Source of the DNA: a virus
DNA length: 64,000 nt
Strand: one strand, 5' to 3'
IMG/VR virus record: IMGVR_UViG_3300022848_000777
Span: 1 to 64,000 of that record
In this document: piece by piece, positions 6,938-55,909 of the stretch
Layout: each line of letters opens with the position of its first letter
Position numbering within the stretch: the first letter of the stretch is position 1
Notes under the pieces: generated by a model
Databases searched by the model: none
The model's input: the letters and a program-made list of their open reading frames with translations, nothing else
What the model was told of the DNA's origin: nothing
Program-made: the position numbers and the translations under genes

Positions 6938-7774
6938 ATGAATAAACCTATAAAAAGTATAAATCAATTAATAAAAGATGAGTACACTAAATGTGCAGCT
7001 GATCCAGTATATTTCTTTAAGAAATATTGTTATATCCAACATCCAACACGTGGGAAGATTTTATTCGATACCTTCGATTTCCAAGATGAAACTTTAGAAG
7101 ATTTTAATAATTTCAGATTTAATGTGATATTAAAATCAAGACAGTTGGGTATATCAACACTAACAGCAGGTTACGCATTATGGTTAATGTTATTTAAAGA
7201 AGATCAAAATATATTGGTTATAGCAACAACTCAAGATGTGGCCAAAAACCTTATCACTAAGGTTAAGTATATGCATGATAACTGCCCTAGTTGGTTGAGG
7301 TTAGATACTGAGGAAGCAAACAAACTATCATTAAGATTTGTAAATGGTTCAACAATTAAAGCCGTATCAAGTACAGGAACAGCGGGTCGATCAGAGGCAC
7401 TATCATTATTGATCATTGATGAGGCTGCATTTATTCAAAAAGTAGATGATATTTGGGCTTCTGCACAATCTACACTTTCCACTGGGGGTAGTGCTATCGT
7501 ACTTTCCACACCAAATGGTGTTGATAACTTCTTTCATAGCACATGGTTAAAATCAGAAGAGGGTGCCGCATGGAATGGAATACGATTGCATTGGACTAGG
7601 CATCCAGAAAGAAATCAAAAATGGAGAGATGAGCAATCCGCATTGCTTGGTGATGCAATGGCAGCTCAGGAATGTGATTGTTTGTGGGGGGAATCTATGG
7701 TTACGGTACGTGATACTGAAACGGAAAATATCATAAACGTATCACTTTCAGATTTGTATAATAATTTATATTAA
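6938..7774 (+). CDS. terL: Terminase large subunit, N-terminal ATPase part fused to a 31-aa split-intein N fragment
   Basis: KSRQLGIST (Walker A), LIIDEAAF (Walker B), STPNG. Ends QECD|CLWGESMVTVRD...LYNNLY*, with intein Cys1 at 7679. Confidence 0.95.
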   Translation: MNKPIKSINQLIKDEYTKCAADPVYFFKKYCYIQHPTRGKILFDTFDFQDETLEDFNNFRFNVILKSRQLGISTLTAGYALWLMLFKEDQNILVIATTQDVAKNLITKVKYMHDNCPSWLRLDTEEANKLSLRFVNGSTIKAVSSTGTAGRSEALSLLIIDEAAFIQKVDDIWASAQSTLSTGGSAIVLSTPNGVDNFFHSTWLKSEEGAAWNGIRLHWTRHPERNQKWRDEQSALLGDAMAAQECDCLWGESMVTVRDTETENIINVSLSDLYNNLY

Positions 7775-7777
7775 TTA

Positions 7778-7785
7778 TACTTATA
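7778..7785 (+). promoter_or_regulatory. Late-type promoter motif TACTTATA before the terL endonuclease
   Basis: Member of the TA(T/C)TTATA family (about 18 intergenic copies). Confidence 0.65.
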
Positions 7786-7808
7786 TACAAGAGTGTGAAT
7801 GTAAACGG

Positions 7809-8552
7809 ATGTTATATATGGGGTATGTAAAAGATGGGTGGGATAAAATTAAAGATGAATTATCAAATATTGATGAGTTTTATACCATTAAGCAAACTAT
7901 ACATTTATTAAATACGGATTATTATTATAAAAATTATTTTGGTAGGGCTAGGAATCGCACTATGATAAAACGTAATCCTAAATTATACAAGTCCATATAT
8001 GAACATACTGATATTTTAGAAACGACATTTAAAAAATATAATAAATACAAAGGTTGGTATAATTTCAAATACCGTATGGTATTTTTAGTTGATAATGGTG
8101 GTGATATTAACACTTTAAAGTGTGAGTGTGGTCGTACATATAATTGGACTAAATATTGTAGATTCTGCCCAAATCCTAAAAAAACATGGTTGGGTAAAAC
8201 ACATACAGATGTAACTAAAAAAATACAACGAATAAGTACTTTACAATACTTATCAAAAACCAATGGTCAATTAACACCTAGATATAATATCAATTCAATA
8301 CCAATCATAGAAGCAAAAGCTAAAGAATTAGGAATAACTGATTTACAGCATGCCGAAAATGGTGGAGAATTCCACATCAAAGATCTTGGTTATTGGGTGG
8401 ATGGTTATAGTAAAGAAAAAAACATAGTAATAGAATATGATGAACGTCATCATTTCAGAAATGATAAGATAAAAGTGAAAGATATTCAAAGACAAAACGA
8501 AATCGAAACCCATCTTAATTGTAAATTTATAAGGATACGTTGTAATGGATAA
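7809..8552 (+). mobile_element. Free-standing homing endonuclease (Vsr/EDxHD-like PD-(D/E)xK fold) inside fractured terL
   Basis: QHAENGGE..VDGY..IVIEYDERHH..D..RQ..I...L.C.FIRI. Lies between the intein halves; paralog of 54188..55015. Confidence 0.85.
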
Positions 8553-9732
8553 TCATATATTAAGACATAATCATAAATATGAAATACTAACACCATCGGG
8601 ATATCAATCATTCGCTGGGATTCGTAAGATCTCTAAAGATGTAATATACACCATTATATTATCTAATAATAAAACAATAAAATGTTCAGATAATCACCCA
8701 TTTATTATTAACACTGATATTATCCATTCCAATAAATTAAAAGTTGGTGATATATTAGATGGTGTTGATGATACCATAATTACGATTGTTGATATTAAGA
8801 AAACGATGGGAACTTTGAATTTATTTGATGTCGTTGATGTTAATGGTGGTAATTTATTTAATGTTGATGGTATAATTTCACATAATTGTGATTTCATCAC
8901 ATCGGGTTATGGTGTTGTCGATGGTTCTATATTGGAGTGGTATAAAGAGAATCATGTTGTAGATCCATTAGAAGAACGTGGTTTCGATGGTAATTATTGG
9001 TTGTGGAAATATCCAGATTATGATAAAAATTACATCGTTGTGGCCGATGTCGCGCGAGGTGATGGTAAGGATTTTTCAACATTCCATGTTTTCGATGTAG
9101 AAACTGTAGAGCAGGTTGCTGAATACAAAGGTAAGATAGAAACAAAACCTTTTGGTGAGATGTTAGTGGCCGTCGCTATTGAGTGGAATAATGCAATGTT
9201 GGTAATAGAAAACGCCAATGTTGGTTGGGCTGCGATACAACCCGCAATCGATAGACATTATGAAAACCTATATTATTCATATAAAGATTTTGGATATGTT
9301 GATGATGAAGTTCATCTACAAAGTGCCTATGATATGGCAGATAAATCCAAAATGGTTCCTGGATTCTCAATGACAACTAGGACACGACCTTTGGTTATAT
9401 CAAAACTTGATACATATATGAGAGAAAAAGTGCCGATAATTCACTCAATTAGACTTATAAATGAATTATTTGTATTTGTTTGGATGGGTTCTAAGGCAAT
9501 TGCTCGTAATGGGCATAATGATGATTTAGTAATGGCATTTTCTACAGCTTTATGGGTGAGGGATACCGCACTTAGACTTAGACAAAAGGGTATTGATTTA
9601 AATAGAAGTGCAATACAACATACTACAAAATCAAATACATTCTATAGTAACACCCAACGAGCTCAATCCGACAAGTACTGGAATATGAATATAGGTGGAA
9701 AGCATAGTGAAAATATAAAATGGTTGCTGTAA
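8545..9732 (+). CDS. terL: Split-intein C fragment (114 aa) plus terminase large subunit nuclease part
   Basis: CSDNHPF (block B) and ISHN|CDFITSG (Asn ends 8886, Cys+1 at 8887), then ADVARGDGKDFS and HNDDLVMA nuclease motifs. Confidence 0.95.
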   Translation: MDNHILRHNHKYEILTPSGYQSFAGIRKISKDVIYTIILSNNKTIKCSDNHPFIINTDIIHSNKLKVGDILDGVDDTIITIVDIKKTMGTLNLFDVVDVNGGNLFNVDGIISHNCDFITSGYGVVDGSILEWYKENHVVDPLEERGFDGNYWLWKYPDYDKNYIVVADVARGDGKDFSTFHVFDVETVEQVAEYKGKIETKPFGEMLVAVAIEWNNAMLVIENANVGWAAIQPAIDRHYENLYYSYKDFGYVDDEVHLQSAYDMADKSKMVPGFSMTTRTRPLVISKLDTYMREKVPIIHSIRLINELFVFVWMGSKAIARNGHNDDLVMAFSTALWVRDTALRLRQKGIDLNRSAIQHTTKSNTFYSNTQRAQSDKYWNMNIGGKHSENIKWLL

Positions 9733-16354: not shown

Positions 16355-16445
16355 TGTCTAAATATTATATTAAATAATAAAAAAATGATATTTATATACA
16401 CCTGCCAGAATTGGTGGGTGTTGTAGTATTAAATAAAAACAAAAA

Positions 16446-16673
16446 ATGAGTTATAATAAAACAAATAGTATTTCAGATAAAATAACAGGAACTAAAGTAG
16501 TGGTTCATAAGAAGAACATCGGCCACGCTTTAAGCTTATTCAAAAAAAAAGTTATTGAAAGTGGAAAGTTGGAACGATATCGAGATATTCAAGAATATAC
16601 TAAACCATCGGAAAAACGTAGAGTACTTAAAGCAAATGCCATTCGTAGAAATAAAAAAGAGCAAAATTCATAA
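16446..16673 (+). CDS. rpsU: Phage-encoded ribosomal protein bS21
   Basis: V.V...NIGHALSLFKKKV...G.L..YR..QEYTKPSEKRR...NAIRR matches the bS21 signature. Confidence 0.88.
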   Translation: MSYNKTNSISDKITGTKVVVHKKNIGHALSLFKKKVIESGKLERYRDIQEYTKPSEKRRVLKANAIRRNKKEQNS

Positions 16674-16692
16674 CGTTTTTTATTTTTTATGA

Positions 16693-16700
16693 TATTTATA
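16693..16700 (+). promoter_or_regulatory. Late-type promoter motif TATTTATA before the scaffold/capsid operon
   Basis: The same motif occurs at 3670, 6135, 9748, 11620, 16391, 20322, 21663, 24204, 24601, 27090, 27699, 28837, 41518 and 62666. Confidence 0.7.
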
Positions 16701-16821
16701 GGAAATGTGTTATATCTAACACTATTATACTGCTTCTCAATAAGCAGTCATATTTTTTCAAAAACAAAATTATTAAGATTTAAATAATCTTATTTCCAAA
16801 ATAAAATTAAGGAGACTCAAA

Positions 16822-17745
16822 ATGAGTAAGAACAAAGATTTATTAAAAGAAGCTATAGCTGATGCGAAGCAGGTTAAAGAAACTGCTATTCAAAATGCTA
16901 AATTGGCTTTAGAAGAAGCATTTACACCATCAATTCAATCAATGATTTCAGAAAAGCTTGCAAAGGAAGCTGATGAAGAAATGGATGATGAAGATGATAT
17001 GGATGAAAATGTTAACGATGACGAAGATGATGAAGATGATGTTAACGAAGATGTTAATGAAAGTGATGTTGAAGATGATGAAGATGATGTTAACGAAGAT
17101 GTTAATGAAAGTGATGATGAAGATGAAGATGATGACGAAGATGAGCTTGACTTAGAATCTGTAATCGCTGAATTGGAAGCTAACGAAGCAAAATCAGTTA
17201 AGGAAGCAAAATCAGTTAAGGAAGATGAAGATGAAGATGAAGATGAAGATGAAGATGAAGATGCAGATGAAGATGAAGAAGAACTTGATCTTGATGAAGT
17301 AATCAAATCTATTCGTGAAATGGATGATGAAGAAGATGAGGAAGATGAGGAATCTATGGATGAGGTAAAATCTGAATTAGCAGAAGCATATGACACAATT
17401 TCTGAATTGAAATCTACGTTGACTGAAATTAACATTCTAAATGCAAAACTTCTATATACGAATAAATTATTTAGAACGTTTGATTTGACTGAAACCCAAA
17501 AAGTAAAAGTATTAGAGAACTTCGATAGAACATCTAATGTTAGAGAAGTAAAACTTGTATTTTCAACTTTAGCTGAAAGCCTAACCACATCATCTACTAA
17601 ACGTCGATTTGTGAAAGAGGGTAAAGCATCAAATGTTGTAAAGAGCACAAAACCATTAGTTGAGAATACAATTATCTCAGAGAATGTACAAAACAAATTA
17701 AGATTTCAGAAATTAGCTGGAATGAACAAAAAAAACAAAAAATAA
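16822..17745 (+). CDS. Prohead scaffold/core protein (gp22-like)
   Basis: Highly acidic low-complexity middle with coiled-coil ends; immediately before the capsid gene. Confidence 0.8.
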   Translation: MSKNKDLLKEAIADAKQVKETAIQNAKLALEEAFTPSIQSMISEKLAKEADEEMDDEDDMDENVNDDEDDEDDVNEDVNESDVEDDEDDVNEDVNESDDEDEDDDEDELDLESVIAELEANEAKSVKEAKSVKEDEDEDEDEDEDEDADEDEEELDLDEVIKSIREMDDEEDEEDEESMDEVKSELAEAYDTISELKSTLTEINILNAKLLYTNKLFRTFDLTETQKVKVLENFDRTSNVREVKLVFSTLAESLTTSSTKRRFVKEGKASNVVKSTKPLVENTIISENVQNKLRFQKLAGMNKKNKK

Positions 17746-17760
17746 ACGGAGAAACAATAA

Positions 17761-19374
17761 ATGGATATTTCAAAAATGTTAACAGAAGGTCGATCTCACC
17801 AAATGAGACTTACCGATGAGACAGCAGCTTTGGTTAAAAAATGGAAAGACACTGGACTTCTAGAAGAAATCGAAGATGATATAACAAGATCGGGTATGGC
17901 TACCCTGCTTGAAAATCAAGCGAAACAAATAGTAAAAGAAGCGTCCCAGACAGGTACTTCTACAAATTCAGAAGAATGGGCTGGTGTAGCACTTCCTTTA
18001 GTTCGTAGAATCTTTGATGAGATTGTAGCTAAGAACTTTGTATCAGTACAACCAATGAACCTACCATCAGGTCTAGTTTTTTATCTAGATTTTAAATATG
18101 GTACGAACCAACCTGGATTCGCAACAGGATCAGGAAAGGATTCACAAGAAGATTCAGTATTCGGTATTACCGATACTACTGGCGATCCATCTGGTGGTCT
18201 TTATGGGGCAGGTCGATTTGGTTACACAATCAATGATACTGACACAGTAATACAAGCATTAGGTGCTACACCTGCTACAAACGTATACGCTACTGGTTCA
18301 GTAGGTGAAGTTGATTATAACTACGATTCACAATTCTCAGCATCAAACACAGTAGGTTTGGGTGATGGTACAATTGCAACCGTAACAGTACCAACTGCAT
18401 CATTACCATCATTTGATTCAAAAGGTATTAGAGCATTTAGATTAACAGGTGTTACGGATCAATTCCCAGCATACACTAGATTGCAAGGCCCTAACGTTGT
18501 CTTTGTGGCAAAATCAGCAGCATTCGCATCTATTAAAGTTGTGTTCCACAAACAACCAACTGATACTTCTAGAGGCGATTTTGAAGCATCACCAACGTAT
18601 GATACTACACTTGACATTCCAGAATTGAATGTTGAAATGAAATCAGAACCAATTGTAGCTAAGACACGTAAGTTGAAAGCACAATGGACGCCTGAATTTG
18701 CACAAGATTTAAATGCTTATCATTCAATTGATGCAGAAGCTGAATTAACATCTATGTTATCAGAATACATTTCGCAAGAAATTGACTTTGAGATTTTAGA
18801 TATGTTGATTCAAGATGCTAAAACTACTGGTTACTGGTCAACGCAAGTTGGACGTGAGTGGACTGGAAACGGTTTTGGTGATTTCTCAACAACACAAGCA
18901 CAATCATCAGCATATACGCAACAAGCATGGTTCCAAACTTTGGGTACTGTAGTAGCGGGTGTTTCTAACAAGATTCACCAAAAAACATTAAGAGGTGGGG
19001 CTAACTTTATGGTCGTTTCTCCAGATGTTTCCACTATTATAGAATCTATCCCAGGTTACGCATCATCTGCGAACAATGGTGATTCTGAATACGCATTTGG
19101 TGTAACTCAAATTGGTTCACTTAATGGTCGATTCAAGGTTTACAAGAATCCTTATATGAAGGACAACGTTATTTTAATGGGTTATAGAGGAACGCAATTC
19201 CTTGAGACTGGTGCAGTTTACTCACCATACATTCCATTAATTATGACTCCACTTGTATACGATCCACAAAACTTCACCCCAAGAAAAGGTGTCATGACTC
19301 GTTACGCGAAGAAGATGTTGAGAGGTGAATTCTACGGAAAAGTTCTTGTTGACGGATTGCACAGAATTCAGTAA
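17761..19374 (+). CDS. gp23: Major capsid protein (T4 gp23-like)
   Basis: LLENQ, PLVRR, VQPM..PSGLVF, AKTRKLKAQWTPE.AQDL.A.H.IDAEAEL, Y.PYIPL and MTRYA motifs. Confidence 0.97.
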   Translation: MDISKMLTEGRSHQMRLTDETAALVKKWKDTGLLEEIEDDITRSGMATLLENQAKQIVKEASQTGTSTNSEEWAGVALPLVRRIFDEIVAKNFVSVQPMNLPSGLVFYLDFKYGTNQPGFATGSGKDSQEDSVFGITDTTGDPSGGLYGAGRFGYTINDTDTVIQALGATPATNVYATGSVGEVDYNYDSQFSASNTVGLGDGTIATVTVPTASLPSFDSKGIRAFRLTGVTDQFPAYTRLQGPNVVFVAKSAAFASIKVVFHKQPTDTSRGDFEASPTYDTTLDIPELNVEMKSEPIVAKTRKLKAQWTPEFAQDLNAYHSIDAEAELTSMLSEYISQEIDFEILDMLIQDAKTTGYWSTQVGREWTGNGFGDFSTTQAQSSAYTQQAWFQTLGTVVAGVSNKIHQKTLRGGANFMVVSPDVSTIIESIPGYASSANNGDSEYAFGVTQIGSLNGRFKVYKNPYMKDNVILMGYRGTQFLETGAVYSPYIPLIMTPLVYDPQNFTPRKGVMTRYAKKMLRGEFYGKVLVDGLHRIQ

Positions 19375-21687: not shown

Positions 21688-22851
21688 ATGGCAGTCGACA
21701 TACCAATTTGGCCGGGAAGTTCATCATTTGTAGCAGGAACTACACCATTTGGTTTCTATGATACTGATCTTGATTTTACAATAGATATTGATAGAGTTTC
21801 ATCGTGGTGTGCGACGAGACTTGGGTATCCAATTGTAGATATTGAATTACAAGATATAAATTTTTATGCTTGTTTTGAAGAATCTATAACAGAGTATTCA
21901 TCTCAGATAAATCAATATCAACTCAGAGATAATTTACTTAGCTTGCAGGGGTCACCCACATCATCAAATTACTCACAAGCGTATGTAAATAGTAATTTTG
22001 GTGGATTGGTATCAATTGCAAGGGATTATGGTTCTGAGGCTGGTAGTGGTGGTCGTGTTAATTATTATACAGGATCTTTCCAAATCGAAAGAGGTAAGCA
22101 ATTATATGATTTAACAGATACATCATCCGTTAAATTGGAAGTAGGTGTCGCTGGGTTAAACGTTATAGAGATAAAGGAATTACTACATTATGCACCACCA
22201 GCAGTGGCTAGGTTTTTTGATCCAATGGCGGGTTCAGGAATGGGTTCTCAGCAAATGTTACAGGGATTTGGATGGGGTAATTATTCACCAGGCGCATCTT
22301 TCTTAATGCAACCGATGTATGCTGATTTGTTGAGAATGCAAGCAATTGAGTTTAATGATCAAATACGAAAATCACAATATAGTTTTGATATAAAAAACGA
22401 TAGAGTGCGAATATTTCCAATACCAAATTATGATGGAGATGATCTAAAAATCCATTTCCATTATATACTAAAAAGTGAGAGAAGTAATCCTGTAATTTCG
22501 AAATCAGTAGTTAGTGATTCATCAAACGCAAGATATGATAACATACCATATTCTCAAATAAACGATGTAGGTAGACGTTGGATACAGAAATATACATTAG
22601 CAATCGTAAAAGAAATGTTGGGTGCGGTTAGAAGTAAATTTAGTTCAATACCAATACCTAATTCTGAAATCACTATGGATGGTGATGCGTTACGAAGTGA
22701 GGGTGCGGCAGAACGTGAGCAATTAATTGAAACGTTAAGAGTTGATTTAGATGCCACTTCTAGGAAAGCACTTTTGGAAAACAAAAAAGATGAGGCTGAA
22801 TTTTTAAATGATACATTGAGTCGAATTCCAAACTTTATATATATAGCATAA
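21688..22851 (+). CDS. gp13: Neck protein (gp13-like)
   Basis: RLGYPIVDIEL, WIQKYTLAIVKEMLGAVRSKF and ITMDGDAL motifs. Confidence 0.85.
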   Translation: MAVDIPIWPGSSSFVAGTTPFGFYDTDLDFTIDIDRVSSWCATRLGYPIVDIELQDINFYACFEESITEYSSQINQYQLRDNLLSLQGSPTSSNYSQAYVNSNFGGLVSIARDYGSEAGSGGRVNYYTGSFQIERGKQLYDLTDTSSVKLEVGVAGLNVIEIKELLHYAPPAVARFFDPMAGSGMGSQQMLQGFGWGNYSPGASFLMQPMYADLLRMQAIEFNDQIRKSQYSFDIKNDRVRIFPIPNYDGDDLKIHFHYILKSERSNPVISKSVVSDSSNARYDNIPYSQINDVGRRWIQKYTLAIVKEMLGAVRSKFSSIPIPNSEITMDGDALRSEGAAEREQLIETLRVDLDATSRKALLENKKDEAEFLNDTLSRIPNFIYIA

Positions 22852-24547: not shown

Positions 24548-24643
24548 CTACTTTATTTAATTAAAATCAGTATTATATCCTTTTTTGGGTAATTATTTAC
24601 TATTTATAGGTAGCAAATCATATAAAATATTTAGGAGCATAAT

Positions 24644-27031
24644 ATGGCAGAGAGAATAGTTAGTCCTGGCACTTTTACCAATGAGCGAGATTTAACATTT
24701 TTACCACAAGGAATTGGAAACATCGGAGCTGCATTAATTGGTTCAACAATTAAAGGCCCAGCATTCGTACCCACAAAATTATCATCATTCAATGAGTTCA
24801 TCGAAACATTCGGTGGATTATCACCTAATTCATACTTACCCTACGCTGTAAAGAATTACTTTGAGGATGGCGGAACCGCCACAGTAGTTAGAGTATTAGG
24901 TAGTGATGGGTATTCATTAGGAAAACCACTTGGATTGAAAATATCATCTTCTATAGGTGAAAAAGTAGTTGGGTTATTACACCCAACTGTAGAATTATTA
25001 GGATTGACTGATATATTTGATGACTCTGAAATAGATGGAGTTCCATCTGCTAGTTTATTCACATTAAAACTTTCAGGTTCCAATACCGACAAAACATATA
25101 CTGGTTTATCATTAGATCCAACTTCGGATTCATATTATACTAAATTATTTGGTTCTTCTGCAAAAGGAAGTGAAGATGCATATGCTTACATAAATTGTAG
25201 AGCATTTCAATCAGCATCGATTGCAGCTGATGCTGATGCAGAAATATCACTGGTAACTGATCAAGATATCGATTTATCACAAGAATATAAAACAGCAAAT
25301 ACACCGTGGATCACATCACAGACAGTTGGTGATACTGTATTTGATTTATTCAAAGTACATACAGTATCACATGGTAATCCAACTAACTATGAATTTAAAA
25401 TAGCAATTGAGGATATCAAGCCAGCTGGTAGAGTTCCTGGTTCAATTTATGGATCATTTACACTAACAGTTCGACGTGTAGAGCAGGATAAAATACCAAC
25501 ATCACCATTCGTATCGGTAACTGATTCCGATGTTAGACCTAATATTGCAGAACAATTTCAAAATGTAAACTTAGATCCTGACTCACCTAGCTATATAGCA
25601 AGAGTTATCGGTGATACATTCACTACTGTAGATTCAGCAGGTAAGGTTATCCCTAATGGTGATTATAGTAATAATTCAAAATACATAAGAATTGAGGTTG
25701 CAAGTAGAGTATCAGAAAAATCTATTGATGTTTCATTACTTCCATTTGGATTTAAAGCACTACAGAATCCATTAGGTACATCAATGATTATACCAGATGC
25801 AGTCTTTGTACCATCACAAACAATTAATGATGGTTATAATTCAAAAATATTTTGGGGATTTAACTTCGATTTCGCATTAACTGATAATGCATCCTATCTT
25901 AATCCAATACCAGAGACAACAACTACTGGAAGTAATGTAAACTTCCAACTTGGTAACTTTAACCAAACTGCCGATGCAGCATATCCAACAGTAGCAGATG
26001 CTTATTCTGGTTCTATTACGTTAAATGATAATGAGACATCAATTGATACTCGTAAATTTATGGTTCCATTCCAAGGTGGATTTGATGGATTTAAACCCAA
26101 TCGGGTTGTAAGTTTAGCTGAGAACATCACAGCAGGTAACTCACAAGGTTGGGATATGAGTTCAACATCAGCAGCAGGAACTATAGCATTTAGAAAAGCG
26201 ATTAATGCAGTATCGAATGCAGAAGAATTTGATATAAATATGTTGGCTATTCCTGGAGCAATTCATAGATTACACTCATCAGTAACGACATACGCTAAAG
26301 ATATGTGTGAAGCTAGAGAAGATGCATTCTATGTTATGGATGTGGGTATTAAGGGTGATAGTATCTCAGTAGTATCAAATGCAGTACAAACATTTGATTC
26401 AAACTATACATCAGTTTATTATCCGTGGGTTAAAATATTAGATACTGATAGAAATAAACCAACATGGGTTCCACCATCTGTAGTATTACCTGGAGTTATG
26501 GCATTTAATGATTCGGTTTCAGCAGAATGGTTTGCACCCGCAGGTTTAAATCGTGGTGGTTTACCAAACGTAATCGATGTTGAATCTCGATTGACTCGAT
26601 CTGAAAGAGATCAATTGTATGATGGTAGAATCAATCCAATTGCATCATTTCCAGGCCAAGGTGTAACTGTATTTGGGCAAAAAACACTACAAGGAAAGCC
26701 ATCGGCTTTAGATAGAGTTAATGTTAGAAGATTGTTGATTGCAGTTAAGAAATTCATCGCATCATCTACAAGATATCTTGTTTTTGAACAAAACACGTCA
26801 GCGACTCGTAACCGATTCTTATCTATTGTAAACCCTTATTTAGATTCTATTCAACAAAGACAGGGGTTAACTTCATTTAGTGTTGTAATGGATGAGACAA
26901 ACAATACACCCGATGTTATTGATAGAAACATACTTGTGGGTGAAATTTACCTACAACCGACTAGAACAGCAGAGTTTATTGTTCTTGATTTCAACATTCA
27001 ACCAACTGGGGCATCTTTCCCAGGAGTATAA
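24644..27031 (+). CDS. gp18: Tail sheath protein (gp18-like)
   Basis: SPG....ERDL, WFAPAGLNRG, INPI..FPG.G..VFGQKTL, DRVNVRRL and PTRTAEFI motifs. Confidence 0.97.
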   Translation: MAERIVSPGTFTNERDLTFLPQGIGNIGAALIGSTIKGPAFVPTKLSSFNEFIETFGGLSPNSYLPYAVKNYFEDGGTATVVRVLGSDGYSLGKPLGLKISSSIGEKVVGLLHPTVELLGLTDIFDDSEIDGVPSASLFTLKLSGSNTDKTYTGLSLDPTSDSYYTKLFGSSAKGSEDAYAYINCRAFQSASIAADADAEISLVTDQDIDLSQEYKTANTPWITSQTVGDTVFDLFKVHTVSHGNPTNYEFKIAIEDIKPAGRVPGSIYGSFTLTVRRVEQDKIPTSPFVSVTDSDVRPNIAEQFQNVNLDPDSPSYIARVIGDTFTTVDSAGKVIPNGDYSNNSKYIRIEVASRVSEKSIDVSLLPFGFKALQNPLGTSMIIPDAVFVPSQTINDGYNSKIFWGFNFDFALTDNASYLNPIPETTTTGSNVNFQLGNFNQTADAAYPTVADAYSGSITLNDNETSIDTRKFMVPFQGGFDGFKPNRVVSLAENITAGNSQGWDMSSTSAAGTIAFRKAINAVSNAEEFDINMLAIPGAIHRLHSSVTTYAKDMCEAREDAFYVMDVGIKGDSISVVSNAVQTFDSNYTSVYYPWVKILDTDRNKPTWVPPSVVLPGVMAFNDSVSAEWFAPAGLNRGGLPNVIDVESRLTRSERDQLYDGRINPIASFPGQGVTVFGQKTLQGKPSALDRVNVRRLLIAVKKFIASSTRYLVFEQNTSATRNRFLSIVNPYLDSIQQRQGLTSFSVVMDETNNTPDVIDRNILVGEIYLQPTRTAEFIVLDFNIQPTGASFPGV

Positions 27032-27080: not shown

Positions 27081-27136
27081 AAAATGGTATATTTATAGAA
27101 AAGAGATAAAGTTAGAATAAACGGAGAAAACTTAAA

Positions 27137-27625
27137 ATGGCAAACTTACTAGACCCAAATGAAATAATGTTCACCAGTTTCGAACCTAAAATGTCGAATC
27201 GGTTCATTATGTATATAGAGGGAATTCCATCATATTTGATTAAAGCAGCAAATAGACCAGAAATTACAAACAATGCCGTTACTATAGATCACATTAACGT
27301 TAAGAGAAAAGTTAAGGGTAGAAGTGAATGGAGTGATGTATCTATTACATTATACGATCCAATAGTTCCATCTGGAACGCAAGCTGTTATGGAGTGGGTT
27401 AGATTGCACCACGAATCCGTTACAGGTCGTAATGGTTATTCTGATTTCTATAAAAAAGATATTACATTTAACGCACTTGGCCCAGTTGGTGATAAAGTTG
27501 AAGAATGGACATTAAAAGGTGCATTTATCAATTCAGCAAAATTCTCTGATATGGATTGGACTGGTGAGGATTTATCGGAAGTTGAATTAACACTTTCATA
27601 TGATTACGCAATACTACAATACTAA
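27137..27625 (+). CDS. gp19: Tail tube protein (gp19-like)
   Basis: NRF, W..V.ITLYD, YKKDI, EEWTLKGAF and L.L.YDYA motifs; follows the sheath gene. Confidence 0.92.
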   Translation: MANLLDPNEIMFTSFEPKMSNRFIMYIEGIPSYLIKAANRPEITNNAVTIDHINVKRKVKGRSEWSDVSITLYDPIVPSGTQAVMEWVRLHHESVTGRNGYSDFYKKDITFNALGPVGDKVEEWTLKGAFINSAKFSDMDWTGEDLSEVELTLSYDYAILQY

Positions 27626-27678: not shown

Positions 27679-27728
27679 TGTTTAAATTATTATTTTCATA
27701 TTTATAAGTATAAAGGAGAATTAAAGTT

Positions 27729-28607
27729 ATGAAAGATGAATTACAAGATGAATACGTTAATACTATGACCGATGCTGAAATGGTTGATATGGCTAAAAGT
27801 AAAAATCAAATCGGTCAAGTTTTAGATTATAAGTTTCCTACTGAGATAGTAGAACTACCATCAAATGGATTAATATATTCATTAGACAACCCATTATCAT
27901 CGGGTAAAGTTGAAATGAAGTATATGACTGCTAAAGAAGAAGATATACTTACTACACAATCTTATATAAGAGATGGTAGTGTATTGGATAGATTATTCCA
28001 ATCACTTATAGTTTCTAATGGTGAGGGTAAGTTGGTTAAATATGTTGATTTGGTAGTAGGTGATAAGAACGCAATTATGATCGCATCTAGAATATTAGGA
28101 TATGGGAAGGATTATGAAGTAGAAATTGATGATCCATTTTCAACAGATACAAAGCAAAAAGAAATTATTGATTTAACATCTTTTGATAATAAAGTATATG
28201 ATGGAAATCACCAAACTGAATTAAATAAAAATGAATTTGAGTTCAAACTACCAAAATCCAATCGTTTGATAACGTTTATGGCATTAACTGAGAGCAAAGA
28301 GCGAAAAATTAAACATGAATTGGAAGTTATTTTGAAAGCAAATAGAAAGTTAAACGATAAAACTTCTAGAGAACTCACAACAAGATTAAAAACAATTATA
28401 CTATCAGTGGATGGTGAGATTGATCAGAAATTTATAAATGAATTTGTGAATAACGAACTTTTCGCAGTAGATTCTAAGGCCCTTAGATCCTACATTAACG
28501 AAGTAACACCTGACATTGATTTGGCTTGGGAGTTTATTTCTGATGAAACGGGCCAAGGGAGGTCAATGACTCTTCCTATGGGGGTCGGGTTTTTTTGGCC
28601 TGAATAA
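27729..28607 (+). CDS. Baseplate hub assembly/tail chaperone (gp26-like)
   Basis: VELPSNG..Y, MTAKEEDIL, GDKNAIMIASRILGYG motifs; ends FFWP. Confidence 0.75.
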   Translation: MKDELQDEYVNTMTDAEMVDMAKSKNQIGQVLDYKFPTEIVELPSNGLIYSLDNPLSSGKVEMKYMTAKEEDILTTQSYIRDGSVLDRLFQSLIVSNGEGKLVKYVDLVVGDKNAIMIASRILGYGKDYEVEIDDPFSTDTKQKEIIDLTSFDNKVYDGNHQTELNKNEFEFKLPKSNRLITFMALTESKERKIKHELEVILKANRKLNDKTSRELTTRLKTIILSVDGEIDQKFINEFVNNELFAVDSKALRSYINEVTPDIDLAWEFISDETGQGRSMTLPMGVGFFWPE

Positions 28608-45109: not shown

Positions 45110-46420
45110 ATGGATACATTCGGAAAGAGATTTGGTTCAAGTTTCCAAATAAAAATTCTATCAGCATTATTATCAGATAGGATATTTTTACAGACTATTT
45201 ATGATATTATAAAAGATGATTATTTCGATTCTGATGCAAATCAATGGATTTTAAGTAAAATATTAACCCACTTTGATAAATACAAACAAATACCAACCTT
45301 AGATGTATTTAAAACGGAATCAGATGCACTTAGTTCTGATATTCTAAGACAATCTGTATCAGATAACCTTAGAAATGTATGGGGTGGATTAGAATCCACT
45401 GAGTTAGAATACATAAAAGAGCAATCACTAGAGTTTTGTAAGAATCAGGAAGTTAAAAATGCTATCCTTGAATCGGTAGGTTTGCTTGAGAGTGGTAACT
45501 ACGAAGAAATTCAATCTAAAATAACCGCAGCTATGAAGGCTGGGCAGGATACTGATATCGGGCATGAGTATAATATTAGTATTGATGAACGTTATGCCGA
45601 TAGTGTTAGGAATGTAATTACAACAGGATGGCCTGCAATTGATGAATTAGTAGATGGTGGTTTCGGAAAAGGTGAATTAATTATCTTCGCAGCACCGCCA
45701 GGAATTGGTAAATCATGGGCTCTTATTAATGTGGGTATGGCTGCTGTCAGAGCTGGAAAAACGGTGGTACATTATACTTTAGAGTTAAACGAGGGATATG
45801 TTGGTCAGAGATATGATGCTGTGTTAACTAATATGGCAGTTACTAATTTGAAATATAACATAGATGATGTTAAATCTAGTATTAAAGAATTATCAGGTGA
45901 GCTTATAATAAAATATTGGCCCACAAAATCAGCATCCGTTAATTCCGTAAGGGCATCGGTTGATAAGCTCATATTACAAGGAAAGAAGCCTGATATCATT
46001 ATAGTTGATTATGCAGATTTACTTAAAGGCAATTCGAAGCGAGAGAAGCATGAAGAAATTGAAGAAGTAGTTGAGGAACTTAGAGGTTTGGCAGGGGAGT
46101 ATGAAGTACCATTATATACAGCATCTCAAATAAATCGTTGTCATAATGTAAATGATAACGTGGAAACTCCAACTGGTGATAAAAGGATTGGTGATGTGGA
46201 GATTGGAGACCAAATATTAACACATAAGGGATTTAAGAAAATAACAAATGTATTCCCAATTGAACGACAACCAACCTATCGTATTAAGCTTAAAGATGGT
46301 AGAGAGATAAATGTTTCAGCAGAACATATGATACCAACCCAATACAACAAAATAAAATCCATAGCAGATGGACTTTCAGTAGGTGAGAAATTATTTGTAA
46401 AAAAGAGTGGAAAAAAGTAA
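45110..46420 (+). CDS. gp41: Replicative helicase (gp41/DnaB), N part plus 93-aa split-intein N fragment
   Basis: APPGIGKS, TLEL, VDYADLL, ASQINR|CHNVND. Intein Cys1 at 46139; VSAEH is block B. Confidence 0.95.
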   Translation: MDTFGKRFGSSFQIKILSALLSDRIFLQTIYDIIKDDYFDSDANQWILSKILTHFDKYKQIPTLDVFKTESDALSSDILRQSVSDNLRNVWGGLESTELEYIKEQSLEFCKNQEVKNAILESVGLLESGNYEEIQSKITAAMKAGQDTDIGHEYNISIDERYADSVRNVITTGWPAIDELVDGGFGKGELIIFAAPPGIGKSWALINVGMAAVRAGKTVVHYTLELNEGYVGQRYDAVLTNMAVTNLKYNIDDVKSSIKELSGELIIKYWPTKSASVNSVRASVDKLILQGKKPDIIIVDYADLLKGNSKREKHEEIEEVVEELRGLAGEYEVPLYTASQINRCHNVNDNVETPTGDKRIGDVEIGDQILTHKGFKKITNVFPIERQPTYRIKLKDGREINVSAEHMIPTQYNKIKSIADGLSVGEKLFVKKSGKK

Positions 46421-46440
46421 GGTTTTGCCATGCAGTTATA

Positions 46441-46448
46441 TACTTATA
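46441..46448 (+). promoter_or_regulatory. Late-type promoter motif TACTTATA before the helicase endonuclease
   Basis: Followed by AAAAGGA and ATG 46464. Confidence 0.65.
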
Positions 46449-46463
46449 TAAAAAGGATATAAT

Positions 46464-47555
46464 ATGGCATCAGTAAAGCAAGCTTGGATAACTAGATACG
46501 GAGAAGGGGAAGGTCTTCGTATGTGGGAAATACAAAAAAAGAAATATGGTAAAACACATGATGAATTGAGAACGAAACACGGTAATGATTACGTTGAATC
46601 GTTAGCAAAGAAGAAAAATACATTTTCATTAAAAGGGTGTATTGCCAAATATGGAAAAGTTGATGGTGCTGTTAAGTGGAATGATAGATTAAAAACCAAG
46701 TTAAAAACACAATCTGTTAATTTTAAAAACAAAAAATGGAATAATGGTAGAACCTTAGAATCATATCAACTTAGATACGGGGTAGCGGATGGTTACAGTA
46801 GGTGGGATAAACGGAATAAGCATCAATCCTATATGGCATCAACTCAACGTTATTTGGATGAATTTGGTGAAGATGGGTATGATATAATAAGAAAGATAAA
46901 AGATAACACATCTTTAGAGGCGTATCAAATTCAATACGGTGATGTAGATGGTTTAGTTCATTATAATAAGCACGTTGAACTGATGAAGAACGCATCAAAG
47001 AGGTGTATTGATTATTGGTTAACGTACCATAATGGTGATATTGAGTTAGCAACGCAATCGTTATCAGAGTATCAGAATAATACATCGTTATCATCATTTA
47101 CAAAACGATATGGTAAAGAAGTTGGGTTAGTTAAATATTTAAAATGGGTTGAGGCGGTAACAAAGTATGGATATAAAAGTTATAGTAAGATATCACAGAC
47201 ATTCTGTTGGAATTTGTATGATTCGCTAAATTTATCAATAAATGATACACAATTTTATGAATTAAATAATGAACAATCATTCTACTTTGGTAATAAGTTG
47301 ATTAAGGTTGATTTTAAGTATAAACAAAAGATTATAGAATTCAATGGTGATTATTGGCATGCAAATCCTAATCTGTATAGTGAATCTGATATGATAAAGG
47401 AATATACCGCTAGTGAAATATGGCATCGTGATTCCAATAGAATTGATTTATTAGAAAAAGCTGGTTATGATGTCTTAGTTGTATGGGAATCGGAGTATAA
47501 TGCGAATGGGAGTGATATCATAAACAAATGTAAAAAGTTTTTAGAAAATGAATAA
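46464..47555 (+). mobile_element. Free-standing homing endonuclease (Vsr/EDxHD-like) inside the fractured helicase
   Basis: N-terminal (R/K)YG...G...W repeats. C-terminal VDF...IIEFNGDYWH...D..R......GY.VLVVWESE. Confidence 0.85.
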
Positions 47556-48018
47556 ACATAATTTAAATCCAGATGATTTTGATTTGGTCGAAATTGAGAG
47601 TATTGAGCTAATCGGCGATTCAGATACTATTGATATTACCGTAGAGGATACACATATGTTCTTCGCTAATGGGGTATATAGTCATAATTCAGGCGCAGAT
47701 GATGATATTATTACAGGTACCAAAATAGCAGGTTCATTCTCAAAACTTATGACTGCTGATTTTGTAGTTTCACTGAGTAGAAAAATTGAAGATAAGTTAG
47801 CAGGTACGGGTCGATGGCATGTTATAAAGAACCGTTTCGGGCCCGATGGTACTACATTACCATCCAAAGCTAATATGTCCAGCGGTAAAATAGAGATATT
47901 TTCAGATAATTCAGTTGATGGTCAAAATACAAAAAAAGATATGAAAGAGGGGGAGACTTTTGTTAGACAGAATTTATTTCAAAAGTATAAAGAAATTAAC
48001 AACAAAGTTAACTTTTAA
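47548..48018 (+). CDS. gp41: Split-intein C fragment (47 aa) plus helicase C part
   Basis: IESIE..G..DTIDITV...HMFFANGVYSHN|SGADDD (Asn ends 47688), then TADF and KNRFG motifs. Confidence 0.95.
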   Translation: MNKHNLNPDDFDLVEIESIELIGDSDTIDITVEDTHMFFANGVYSHNSGADDDIITGTKIAGSFSKLMTADFVVSLSRKIEDKLAGTGRWHVIKNRFGPDGTTLPSKANMSSGKIEIFSDNSVDGQNTKKDMKEGETFVRQNLFQKYKEINNKVNF

Positions 48019-52196: not shown

Positions 52197-54149
52197 ATGG
52201 CATATCAGAACGTATTTTATGATAGTGATACTAGAATAATTCATTCATGGGATGATGTTCTTGGTTACGAAACGAGTAAGTATTCACCATATGCATACGT
52301 AAGAGATGGTAATGGTGCGCATACTTCAATATATGGTGATAGGGTTAAGAAAGTAACCTATTGGAAAGATTACAATCCTAATGATCTATTTGAATCTGAT
52401 GTAAATGAAATTACTAGATTTCTAATAGATAAGTATGGGGAATCTGATGAAGTATCTAAAAATCATTGTACACTTACATTTGATATTGAGGTAGAAATGA
52501 ATTCAGGTTTACCCGATACCACTAAAGCTGAAAATGAAGTAACTGCAATAGCATTTCACGATTCTATAACAAATGACAAAGGTGTTTATGTAGTTCATAC
52601 GGGTAAAGAAATTGATAGGAAAATAAAAGGTGCTAATGTAAAATCCTTTAACACTGAGGCTGATATGCTATCTGCATTTTTAAATAAATGGGTAGATATA
52701 TCGCCAACAATAGTGACGGGTTGGAATATTGATTACTTTGATGTTACATATCTTTACAACCGATTGTGTAATGTATTCTCAACGACTGAGGCTAACAGAT
52801 TGTCACCAATTGGTAAAATAAAGTATAATAAATATAGAAAACGTTACCTTATAGCAGGTGTATCTTGTTTAGATTATATGGCATTGTTTAAAAACTTCAC
52901 ATACACAGAACACCCGAATTATAGACTTGATACTATAGCAACTTTAGAGTTAGGTCGTGGTAAGATTGAATATGATGGTAACTTAGATCAATTATTCAGA
53001 GATGATATTGAAAAGTTTATTGAATATAACCTAGTCGATGTTGAGTTGGTTGTTGATTTAGATAAGAAGTTACAGTTTATTGATTTGGCAAGGGCAATAT
53101 GCCACACAGGCCATGTTGCTTATGAGGATTTTCTTTTCTCTTCAAAGTGGTTAGAGGGGGCTATGCTCACATTTCTACGTAGAAGTGGTAGGGTTGCACC
53201 GAATAAACCCAATAGAGTTTCACTAAAGATAAACTCAGGTAAAAAAGGTGAAAATCGAATCTATTTAGAGAATTTACCGAATCTAACACCCCGATCAGGG
53301 AAACTAAAGATTTGGAAATCGAAATCATCTAAGATATCAGTAGAGTATGATGATATTGATTTCTCTACCAATTCATTTATATTGAAGCACCCATTAAAGG
53401 AAACCTTAAAAAAAGAATGGATACTTAAACTTGATTTTGAGGGGGCTTATGTAAAAGAACCAAAACCAGGACTATATAAATGGGTATATGATTTAGATTT
53501 AACATCAATATATCCCTGTATCATTATGACTATTAACATATCACCCGAAACTCAAGTGGGTAATATAACAAATTATTCCACAGAGGCTTATATGCGGCAT
53601 GATATTTCTAAGTTTGAAATAACAGATATTCATGGTAATATATCAGATCCGATGGATAGGGTTGAGTATGATGCATTCATTACAAAGATGAATCTAAGTG
53701 TAGCTGCTAATGGTACATTATACGACCAAAGTAAAGTTGGTATAATTCCTGAAATTTTGAATGTTTGGTTCGACAAGAGAGTTGAATATAAAGATTTGAT
53801 GAAGAAGTTCGGAAAAGCAGGTGATGATGATAAGTATAAATTTTACAATCAACGGCAATCCGTGCAGAAGATTATGCTCAATTCCCTTTATGGTGTACTT
53901 GGTTTGGAGTCATTTAGATTCTATAATGTGAAAAACGCGGAAGCGGTAACACTTACAGGGCAGACTGTAATTAAAACCACTGAGTTAATAGCTAATAATT
54001 ATTATAATAGTGTAACGGGCGATGCTTATGTAATTCAATTAGAAAATGGTGAAACTGTTAGTATGGGTGGTAATCTACCTGTTACGTTAACTAATGGAAT
54101 GATAAAGAAAGTTTCAGAATTAACAGAAGAAGATGATGTTTTATTATAA
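52197..54149 (+). CDS. polB: Family-B DNA polymerase, N part (exonuclease, motifs A and B), ending in a degenerate intein-like segment
   Basis: FDIEV, GWN...FD, YNLVDV, DLTSIYP and KIMLNSLYG motifs. Lacks YxDTDS. Tail 54024-54146 is Hint-like. Confidence 0.95.
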   Translation: MAYQNVFYDSDTRIIHSWDDVLGYETSKYSPYAYVRDGNGAHTSIYGDRVKKVTYWKDYNPNDLFESDVNEITRFLIDKYGESDEVSKNHCTLTFDIEVEMNSGLPDTTKAENEVTAIAFHDSITNDKGVYVVHTGKEIDRKIKGANVKSFNTEADMLSAFLNKWVDISPTIVTGWNIDYFDVTYLYNRLCNVFSTTEANRLSPIGKIKYNKYRKRYLIAGVSCLDYMALFKNFTYTEHPNYRLDTIATLELGRGKIEYDGNLDQLFRDDIEKFIEYNLVDVELVVDLDKKLQFIDLARAICHTGHVAYEDFLFSSKWLEGAMLTFLRRSGRVAPNKPNRVSLKINSGKKGENRIYLENLPNLTPRSGKLKIWKSKSSKISVEYDDIDFSTNSFILKHPLKETLKKEWILKLDFEGAYVKEPKPGLYKWVYDLDLTSIYPCIIMTINISPETQVGNITNYSTEAYMRHDISKFEITDIHGNISDPMDRVEYDAFITKMNLSVAANGTLYDQSKVGIIPEILNVWFDKRVEYKDLMKKFGKAGDDDKYKFYNQRQSVQKIMLNSLYGVLGLESFRFYNVKNAEAVTLTGQTVIKTTELIANNYYNSVTGDAYVIQLENGETVSMGGNLPVTLTNGMIKKVSELTEEDDVLL

Positions 54150-54156
54150 TTAATAC

Positions 54157-54164
54157 TACTTATA
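54157..54164 (+). promoter_or_regulatory. Late-type promoter motif TACTTATA before the polB endonuclease
   Basis: Followed by CGGGGG and ATG 54188. Confidence 0.65.
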
Positions 54165-54187
54165 TATAGAAACGGGGGTATCAACGT

Positions 54188-55015
54188 ATGATTGAATGTA
54201 AAATATGTAATAAGAAGTATAACACCATCACAGCAACTCATTTAAAGACACATGGTATTAGTATGGCAGATTATCGAACTAAATTTCCCAATGTACCAAT
54301 CCAATCAGATGGGATGATTCAGAGGGGAGTTCACTCATTAGAAAATATGATACGAAGGCATGGTGATGTTCAAGGTAATATTAGATGGGAAGATTATAAA
54401 CAAAAACAGGCGTATACGAATACATTTGAATACAAACGTGATATTTGTGGTTGGGATGAGGATCAGTTCAATGCGTATAATAAAAAGAGAGGTAGTTTTG
54501 GTGAGTTGAATGGTAATCATGGGTCATCGTATTATCAGATTTGGATTGAAAAGTATGGTAGAGATGTGGCAGATGATATGAATTTTCAGTTATCTAAACG
54601 TAAAGCTAGACATGGTGAAGATAATGGTAACTATAAGAGATCAAAAAGACCTGATGAACTGAAACGAATGAGTGTATCTGCAATAGAGCGTGTAAAACGT
54701 AATGGGATGCCACATTCATATAATCCAAATTCAATTCCAATTATAGAACGGTATGGGTTGGATAATGGATATACATTTCAGCATGCTGAAAATGGTGGTG
54801 AGTATCAAATACCAGATAATACGTTTTTTGTAGATGGGTATGATAGATCAAATAATGTAGTGATTGAATATGATGAACAACGACATTTTAGAAACGGAGA
54901 ATTGCATCCAAAAGATATATGGAGAATGAACTTGATTATATCGAAATTAAAGTGTGTGTTTGTAAGAATCGATTATAAGGGCAATATAACAAAATATGAA
55001 AATAAAAACAATTAA
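54188..55015 (+). mobile_element. Free-standing homing endonuclease (Vsr/EDxHD-like) inside fractured polB
   Basis: N-terminal CxxC...HL..H zinc finger. C-terminal QHAENGGE..VDGYD..VVIEYDE..H; paralog of 7809..8552. Confidence 0.85.
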
Positions 55016-55909
55016 AAAAACAAACGTCGGCGTAGATTACAACATCTACGTCGACACGTAACTGATTCAGTATTTTATGAAGCAGCTCCATTGGTTAAGG
55101 CTAGAAATCCTAAAATCGATGTTAATTCTGATGAAGAAATGATACCTGCCATTCTTAGTGTTGCAAAAGAAGTGCAAGATCACATCAATAAAACATATGA
55201 TGTGATGGCTAAATCCATGTTTAATACCAGTAACCATAGATTTGACATAAAGCAAGAAACAATCGCAAAGGGTGGATTTTGGGTATCTAAAAAACGATAC
55301 GCTCAGTGGATTATAAATGATAACTCTGTTAATTGTGATAAGTTGGATGTAAAGGGGTTAGATGTAAAACGAAGTTCATTTCCTGTATACTTTAAGGAAG
55401 TGATGTCTGAAATATTATGGTCTATTCTAAAAGATGATGCGAAATTGAACATCGATAAAAAGATATTAGATTATAAAGATGGTATGGAAAATTACTACTA
55501 TGTTGATATTGCAAAGAATTCAGCAATTACGGATATGAGTAAGCATTTATTTAAAAACCAAGCTCTTGGTGAGTTTCAAAAGGGAACACCCGCTCACGTT
55601 AAAGCAGCAATAACTTATAATCAATTATTAAAAAAGTTCAATACTGCTTTTAAATACGAACCAATTAAAGATGGTGATAAGGTTAAATGGGTGTATTTAA
55701 AGAATAATCCATTGGGATTGAATGGGGTTGCATTGAATGGGTATAATGATCCTGATGAAATAATTGAGTTCATTAAAACCTACATAGATTTCGAATTAAT
55801 TTGGGAAAAAGAACTTCAAAATAAATTAGATGATTTCTATGATGCAATGAAATGGGATTTACCAAACCCAAACTTAGATAAAGCAGCAGAGTTTTTCGAC
55901 TTTAATTAG
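54996..55909 (+). CDS. polB: Family-B DNA polymerase, C part (motif C, thumb), with a 5-nt frame break inside YVDTDS
   Basis: ATG 54996 gives MKIKTIKKTNVGVDYNIYVDT* (TAA 55059-61). The other frame from 55061 gives TDSVFYEAAPL...KKRYA...KGLD..RSS. The ORF-track start at 55091 omits the catalytic motif. Confidence 0.85.

Follow-up and report, generated by a model that had tools for sequence, protein, structure and literature searches.

Known bS21 systems and the phage locus

The ribosomal protein bS21 is loosely bound to the 30S subunit, on the platform beside the 16S 3' end, and assembles late. In Bacteroidia, the host bS21 (residues Tyr54 and Ile55) holds the 3' tail of the 16S rRNA together with bS18 and bS6, and the anti-Shine-Dalgarno (anti-SD) sequence is then unable to pair. 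To our knowledge, bS21 is the ribosomal protein that phages encode most often, and we know of no role assigned to it in phages. Here, a bS21 gene (rpsU) and the Shine-Dalgarno (SD) sites of the virion genes were analysed in the IMG/VR viral contig IMGVR_UViG_3300022848_000777, which belongs to a large, uncultured T4-like phage. The window comprises positions 1-64,000, the first 64 kb of this 174,750-bp contig. Carriage of bS21 and SD use are likely to be functionally linked. SD sites are frequent in the relatives that have bS21 and scarce in those that lack it, repeatedly on the capsid tree, which fits such a link. The more specific proposal, that the phage bS21 and the SD sites of the late genes form one functional unit in which bS21 frees the anti-SD for virion messages, is put forward with slightly less than even confidence.

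The best described cellular system is that of Flavobacterium johnsoniae. In its ribosome, Tyr54 of bS21 stacks on A1534, and Ile55 makes a van der Waals contact with the 16S 3' tail (PMC7797042). Ribosomes with the Y54A variant give about 3-fold more output from strong-SD reporters, and bS21-deltaC ribosomes about 5-fold more; the bS21-deltaC ribosomes also give about 2-fold less product from SD-less reporters (PMC9976891). The same species holds a subpopulation of bS21-less ribosomes that prefers SD-led mRNA (PMC9976891). The phage locus involves the same protein and the same ribosomal site, at which a change or removal of the bS21 C-terminus leads to a preference for SD-led mRNA (PMC7797042, PMC9976891). 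The two systems differ in the genes that carry the SD: the only strong SD in F. johnsoniae is on the host's own rpsU, in a feedback loop, whereas in this phage rpsU is SD-less and the SD sites stand before virion genes. The SD strength also differs, with -6 to -9 kcal/mol in this phage and below -13 kcal/mol in F. johnsoniae.

Phage bS21 is expressed together with structural genes in metatranscriptomes (Chen et al. 2022, ISME Commun, PMC9723584). Those freshwater Bacteroidetes myoviruses carry bS21 in the head module with terL, portal, prohead protease, and capsid, as does the phage described here. The bS21 is late in both cases, as seen in metatranscriptomes there and as predicted from the promoter here. 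According to the matched passages of that paper, the hosts were predicted to be Bacteroidetes, and the phage protein was proposed to replace the host bS21. An aromatic residue occupies the Tyr54 column in all 61 of their phage bS21 proteins, which were concluded to block the anti-SD like the host bS21 (PMC9723584). The present phage differs from these in having Arg-Arg at this site, and Tyr/Phe is found in 16 of 48 related loci. SD is not discussed for phage genes in the matched passages of PMC9723584, nor is a late-gene restriction of SD or its co-occurrence with bS21.

The Pelagibacter phage HTVC008M is likewise a T4-like aquatic phage with bS21 (Mizuno et al. 2019, PMC6375957); its host belongs to a different phylum, and the abstract of that paper is silent on SD use. 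McNutt et al. (PMC9976891) cite Mizuno et al. for the incorporation of phage bS21 into E. coli ribosomes. In the matched text on Francisella tularensis, the exchange of bS21 variants alters translational output, as would be the case here, although these paralogs form a cellular system and not a phage one (PMC9578407). Literature searches retrieved phage bS21 and the proposed replacement of host bS21; they retrieved no statement of late-only SD use or of bS21-SD co-occurrence.

The phage bS21 gene

The phage bS21 scores 39.9 bits against the Pfam Ribosomal_S21 profile (cut-off 27) and covers profile positions 2-54 of 55. Its open reading frame (ORF) is the sole PF01165 match in the scanned 174,750-bp genome. 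The family hallmark is an F-K-K/R core and a KPS motif between two helices. The phage protein is small and basic, its LFKKKV and EYTKPSEKRR segments align with the bacterial chains, and its N-terminal extension has 17 residues. Judged by the profile match and these motifs, ORF 16446-16673 is confirmed as a true bS21. In the head module, the gene comes after that of the prohead protease and stands directly upstream of the scaffold and Gp23 capsid genes (Table 1). No homologs of bS18 and bS6 were found in the phage genome.

The phage protein is highly divergent: among 1.8 billion representatives, 74 were matched in an exhaustive HMMER search, the best with 58% identity, and a word-indexed protein search returned the query alone. 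The F. johnsoniae chain 7jil_z scores lower than the chains from Firmicutes and gamma-proteobacteria. The Tyr54 column was placed 13 residues after the Pro of the KPS motif. This is its distance in the Bacteroidia-type chain 9i5v_9 (K40-P41-S42 ... A52-I53-Y54-V55), with which 7jil_z aligns in register and without gaps. The phage bS21 has Arg67 in this column and Arg68 at the Ile55 position of F. johnsoniae. The alignment to the Flavobacterium protein therefore agrees with the initial annotation, in which the absence of an aromatic residue at the C-terminal Tyr column had been noted. The Tyr54/Ile55 hallmark of the anti-SD-sequestering Bacteroidia-type bS21 is thus missing, and the bS21 of E. 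coli and Firmicutes also has a basic residue in this column. Many Arg-type relatives (e.g. loci L025-L034) have a conserved Trp/Tyr three residues past the Tyr54 column (AIRAEW..), one helical turn beyond it. This residue, which is absent in the present phage and the Mel-like group, might substitute for Tyr54.

The rpsU leader is A-rich and without an SD, with an anti-SD pairing energy of +0.7 kcal/mol; the strong-SD leader (below -13 kcal/mol) of the Bacteroidia-type autoregulation is absent. A late-promoter box precedes the gene (Table 1), as had been claimed. By its promoter, from which its expression is predicted, rpsU is a late gene, and the motifs indicate that the phage bS21 is made from its own late promoter on an SD-less message. 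A late box was found within 120 nt upstream of 16 of the 48 related bS21 genes, against a background of 3.6%. The SD-less rpsU leader is shared by the subclade of this phage; the Mel-like clade has AAGGA instead (11/48). The hairpin directly after the late box is kept in relatives (including L022-L034), with compensatory changes and a U-run after the hairpin. This hairpin probably terminates transcripts that arrive from upstream, and it overlaps the rpsU promoter. Since a terminator-like hairpin is fused to its promoter, rpsU looks like an insulated late unit.

SD sites of the virion genes

Genes were called blind to SD, with the first ATG taken for each ORF and candidates ranked by codon-usage score. 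They were classed by functional module (structural, n=64; replication, n=58; early, n=110) and not by promoter, because the regular expression for the early/middle -7 box lacked specificity and matched the minus strand more often. GGAG at positions -17 to -4 was found in 11/64 structural genes, 0/58 replication genes, and 0/110 early genes (11/64 vs 0/168; Fisher p=3.6e-7). AGGA, GGAG, or GAGG occurs in the leaders of 24/64, 5/58, and 3/110 genes, respectively. The mean anti-SD pairing energies are -2.9 kcal/mol for the structural, -1.5 for the replication, and -0.5 for the early class. Over the whole genome, no excess of anti-SD pairing was found over random positions or internal ATGs. The structural leaders have a G peak at -8 to -11, and in the early leaders A is most frequent at -11 to -13 and at -3.

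The motif [ACT][AC]GGAG stands before all five of the most abundant virion-type genes: the scaffold, the capsid, the sheath, the tube, and the gene at 27729 (Table 1). The gp13-like leader has AGAGGA (-5.8 kcal/mol). The leaders of portal, terL, bS21, gp32, UvsX, DnaB, PolB, clamp, and dUTPase are all at about 0 kcal/mol. The SD-like leaders of the high-copy late genes, the SD-less replication genes, and the exceptional position of portal and terL were thus recovered as first described. An SD had also been assigned to three endonucleases; a clear SD-like core is seen for two of them, at 46464 (AGGA) and 54188 (GGGG), and the site of the one at 7809 is weak. Together, the counts support that SD-like leaders are confined to the late structural genes, and to the high-copy ones above all.

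The scaffold/capsid transcript is headed by the second late box, which is kept in the relatives L016 and L019. A leader of about 120 nt follows and ends with AAGGAG before the scaffold ATG. Its hairpins lie at 16707-16722, at 16730-16747 (followed by a T-run), and at about 16774-16792. In L016 and L019 the hairpins show compensatory changes (CTGCTT/AAGCAG, CTACTT/AAGTAG, CTGTTT/AAACAG), and the AAGGAG is kept, so that the layout of late box, hairpin leader, and AAGGAG is shared with these two metagenomic relatives. The scaffold-like protein had no match in Pfam and PHROGs, and a scaffold function is therefore suggested by its position and composition. Its slot is that of the acidic protein before the capsid gene in Flavobacterium phage immuto and Microcystis phage Mel-JY01.

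The intergenic leaders sort into promoter classes. The early/middle promoters read TTTGG-N18-cgTATATTG, the early ones often with an upstream TTAACA and a conserved hairpin leader. The consensus of the late promoters is ATATTTATA or TACTTATATA. Their box, TAYTTATA, has 52 copies on the plus strand and 19 on the minus strand, and 62% of them are intergenic, against 13% expected. This box is common to phage immuto, where 76% of the copies are intergenic. The word CGTATATT was considered as an early box common to immuto and was dropped, since in immuto it overlaps the late box. Many early genes (84-131 kb, e.g. 84231, 88618, 125002, 129395) have the conserved leader TTTATTTTGTTGGGTTGAGGAAGTAACCTCACCAATTTAAAA directly after the promoter, which folds as a hairpin in which a GAGG tract pairs with a CCTC tract.

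bS21 carriage and SD use among relatives

Relatives were searched by capsid similarity, because bS21 is too divergent for back-translated pattern scans; the contigs around single bS21 representatives were too short for a module-level test. The IMG/VR scan gave 80 related head-module loci; capsid relatives number at least 580. In 46 of the 80 loci, a bS21 gene precedes the capsid gene in the same orientation. SD use was compared in the 66 loci with known status, 48 bS21-positive (this phage and Mel-JY01 included) and 18 bS21-negative. In the 16 loci whose Tyr54 column is aromatic, SD cores precede 48.0% of the head-module genes (null 9.2%), and GGAG precedes 21.5%. The 32 loci with a basic residue have an SD core on 43.3% (null 6.7%) and GGAG on 25.1%. 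For the 18 loci with no bS21 and at least 3.2 kb of upstream sequence, the values are 11.4% (null 9.2%) and 3.9%. The difference in SD cores between presence and absence of bS21 is significant (Mann-Whitney p=8e-10). The capsid leader itself has an SD core in 47/48 bS21-positive loci vs 6/18 bS21-negative loci. On independent contigs from GTDB bins, an SD core was found in 3/100 genes of seven bS21-negative loci.

A capsid tree was reconstructed (quick IQ-TREE, SH-aLRT support). The bS21 state changes at least six times on this tree, with gain and loss interleaved, and three of the changes are forced by well-supported branches. On the bS21 side of one sister contrast, L085, L092, and L097 have SD on 27-54% of genes, vs 0-7% in immuto, L089, and L093. 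Similarly, L059 (bS21 side) has 41% vs 0-10% in L069-L075. The SD-poor L065, L048, and L056 (0-8%) are placed among clades at 31-64%. All of the sister contrasts agree, with the bS21 side SD-rich and the sister group SD-poor.

No bS21 was found across the whole genome of phage immuto (L011); a 75-residue ORF at 18346-18573 has the same slot and size but is acidic, and was rejected as bS21. SD cores are avoided in immuto (2.3% of leaders vs 14.6% at internal ATGs), where the genes for capsid, scaffold, and sheath have simple A-rich leaders. Because such leaders and SD avoidance go together with the late box in immuto, high expression alone does not demand an SD in this lineage. Mel-JY01 (L002, PP395634.1) has bS21 in the same slot (22183-22410), with Lys at the Tyr54 column, and GGAG before the scaffold, capsid, and tube genes and before the annotated GTG start of the sheath gene. 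The complete genome G001, with an Arg-type bS21, has an SD core in 16/42 structural vs 5/40 replication orthologs (p=0.011). In G001, TAGGAG(G) precedes the scaffold, gp13-like, sheath, and tube genes, and no SD precedes gp32, UvsX, DnaB, RNR, PolB, and clamp.

Proposed mechanism and alternative explanations

The proposed unit might work in the following manner. The SD-less rpsU message could be read by unmodified host ribosomes. Since bS21 is loosely bound and late-assembling, the phage bS21 would enter the host 30S subunits. Ribosomes with the phage bS21 and its Arg-Arg pair could pair with SD sites, and would favour the SD-led scaffold, capsid, sheath, tube, and other virion messages. The early/middle messages of the phage and the host messages, all SD-less, would be disfavoured. 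The outcome would be a late-phase feed-forward boost and not the trigger of the early-to-late change. The Arg-Arg pair offers a plausible structural reason for a freed anti-SD in this phage, which does not extend to the Tyr-type relatives.

Several points weigh against this proposal. The entry of the phage bS21 into ribosomes, like the release of the anti-SD, is a step that we infer. The initial annotation spoke of a translational early-to-late switch, which could not be established: bS21 itself is preceded by a late box, as are the genes that it would favour, and would thus act as a late-phase amplifier. The annotation had also pointed to the missing aromatic residue. Stronger SD use with a non-aromatic residue 54 was rejected, since relatives with Tyr/Phe and those with a basic residue are alike (48% vs 43% of genes, 16 vs 32 loci, p=0.13). 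Because the Tyr/Phe-type relatives are equally SD-rich, SD use does not follow the absence of an aromatic residue, and the Arg-Arg substitution cannot be its general cause. The SD sites are modest, and the F. johnsoniae effect was shown with stronger ones. Apart from immuto, all loci were called bS21-negative from flanks of 10 kb. In the complete, Tyr-type genome G003, the SD cores are mostly weak AAGGA, and the difference between structural and replication genes is not significant. Finally, Mel-JY01, the nearest bS21-carrying cultured relative, is recorded on Microcystis and has SD cores on 35% of genes; this host label also counts against a Bacteroidota host.

The present phage probably infects a member of the Bacteroidota, of the Flavobacteria type with ribosomes that ignore SD sites. 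The cultured bS21-less relatives infect Flavobacterium and Rhodothermus, and a near relative with an Arg-type bS21 was placed in a Flavobacterium bin. The early/middle leaders are SD-less and show the adenine pattern of F. johnsoniae, in which A at -3 and at -12/-13 was measured as a positive determinant of translation (PMC6847099). Tyr54-type bS21 is present in sister clades. The promoters are compatible with -33 TTG / -7 TAnnTTTG, and sigma-70 geometry also fits fairly well. The bins that hold related contigs have mixed labels, with Bacteroidota as the plurality. The other cultured members of the Mel-JY01 clade infect Flavobacterium and Rhodothermus, and the host label of Mel-JY01, or a host jump, deserves checking.

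The main rival, which we regard as unlikely, is that the association reflects the hosts: the bS21 phages would infect SD-reading hosts, and the bS21-less phages SD-blind Bacteroidia. The bS21 would then be carried for another reason, such as general ribosome support or capture, and the SD sites would be ordinary high-expression signals. The cyanobacterial host record and wide SD use of the bS21-carrying Mel-JY01 fit this explanation, and so do the nearness of the phage bS21 to Firmicutes and gamma-proteobacterial proteins, the sigma-70 fit of the early promoters, and the mixed bin labels. However, SD sites are not enriched in the early and replication genes of this phage and G001, which is unexpected in an SD-using host. 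The 16 related bS21 proteins that keep the Bacteroidia-specific Tyr/Phe54 sit among SD-rich genes, and three or more gains or losses of bS21 would each need to have been accompanied by a change of host. The adenine pattern of the early leaders, the hosts of the cultured bS21-less relatives, and the Flavobacterium bin of the near Arg-type relative also speak against it. The explanation by hosts is thus weakened, mainly by the SD-less early/middle genes, the Tyr54-type relatives, and the repeated changes on the tree.

Somewhat less probable still is that the phage bS21 acts like the host protein, as Chen et al. proposed, and takes the place of host bS21 or supplements it once the host is shut off. 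The GGAG motif would then be co-inherited and serve something else, either as a site where another phage factor binds or processes the transcript or as a transcript-stability element. From the matched passages of PMC9723584, the Tyr-type relatives should indeed still hold the anti-SD, and conserved hairpins give structure to the long late leaders. Yet GGAG lies at the canonical SD distance (the G peak at -8 to -11) and matches the anti-SD core, its position is kept across relatives while the surrounding leader diverges, and no candidate partner factor was found. The last explanation starts from the bS21-less ribosomes of F. johnsoniae that prefer SD-led mRNA (PMC9976891), and holds that the late SD sites exploit such a natural pool, growing as host synthesis stops, while the phage bS21 has an opposing or unrelated role, e.g. 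damping the host rpsU feedback; it is very improbable, since it predicts no or a negative bS21-SD association and the one observed is strongly positive.

Genome context

The contig has a GC content of 32.4%, a CheckV completeness of about 90%, and nearly all of its genes on the plus strand. By PHROGs and Pfam, a T4-like head and tail module (Table 1) is followed by a replication module with gp32, UvsX, an exonuclease, a split DnaB, RNR, dUTPase, a split PolB, and the clamp. A second structural region is marked by a baseplate wedge gene at 149,731. These searches agree with the initial gene identities (terL, portal, capsid, gp13, sheath, tube, gp32, UvsX, helicase, PolB, clamp, and dut); the label "gp26-like" for the gene at 27729 was not confirmed, as this gene has no PHROG match. 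In phage records, the closest capsids are those of Microcystis phage Mel-JY01 (61%) and the Flavobacterium "immuto" phages (52.5%), and further close capsids belong to an uncultured huge phage and Rhodothermus phage RM378. A megablast search of the region against phage records gave no matches.

Table 1. Features of the bS21 locus and of the surrounding head and tail module (window positions)
Feature	Position	Strand	Evidence
terL (split)	6938 and 8545		PHROGs/Pfam
Portal	9773		PHROGs/Pfam
Prohead protease	13416		PHROGs/Pfam
Late-promoter box TATTTATA (within ATATTTATA, 16388-16396), upstream of rpsU	16389..16396	+	TAYTTATA motif
10-bp hairpin ACACCUGCCA / UGGUGGGUGU, directly after the late box	16398..16421	+	Minimum free energy -14.0 kcal/mol
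rpsU, phage ribosomal protein bS21, 75 amino acids	16446..16673	+	Pfam PF01165, E=3.4e-10; phrog_21469
Second late box ATATTTATA, directly after the rpsU stop	16692..16700	+	Sequence
Structured scaffold leader, three hairpins	16707..16792	+	Fold
Scaffold SD site AAGGAG, 7 nt upstream of the start codon	16809..16814	+	-8.2 kcal/mol
Acidic scaffold-like protein, 307 amino acids, long D/E-rich repeats	16822..17745	+	ORF and translation
Capsid SD site ACGGAG, 9 nt upstream of the start codon	17746..17751	+	-6.6 kcal/mol
Major capsid protein, Gp23 family	17761..19374	+	Pfam PF07068, E=3e-75
gp13-like adaptor	21688		PHROGs/Pfam
TAGGAG site of the tail sheath gene	24632..24637	+	-6.5 kcal/mol
Tail sheath gene	24644-27031	+	PHROGs/Pfam
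ACGGAG site of the tail tube gene	27121..27126	+	-6.6 kcal/mol
Tail tube gene	27137-27625	+	PHROGs/Pfam
AAGGAG site of gene 27729-28607 (unassigned function)	27713..27718	+	-8.8 kcal/mol

The terL, DnaB, and PolB genes are each split in two ORFs (window 6938-9732, 45110-48018, and 52197-55909). A gene of about 250-360 amino acids interrupts each of them, at 7809-8552 in terL, 46464-47555 in DnaB, and 54188-55015 in PolB; the latter two both belong to phrog_22677. A late box of the TACTTATA type precedes each of the three inserted genes. Twenty-seven tRNA genes are clustered at 130937-139810 of the contig. About six copies of a repeat unit (..cttaatactttcacaagttCTTATTTTAttgattcagcatc) were found at the two contig ends (~60-490 and 174109-174720), four at the start with a spacing of about 108-170 nt and two near the end. 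These repeats may be terminal repeats or a packaging region.

Implications

A wider reading can be offered somewhat more tentatively than the proposal for this phage: in a large clade of aquatic T4-like phages, bS21 might turn the SD-blind ribosomes of Bacteroidia into SD-reading ones, and not via Tyr54 alone. It makes a concrete and falsifiable prediction, namely that the phage bS21 lets SD-ignoring ribosomes read SD sites. The tools for such a test exist in F. johnsoniae, including SD and SD-less reporters, purified ribosomes, and cryo-electron microscopy. If the reading is true, the SD-led virion messages would be privileged late in infection, and the prominence of bS21 among the ribosomal proteins of phages would be explained. 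It would then be a case of viral reprogramming of ribosome specificity by the swap of one small protein.

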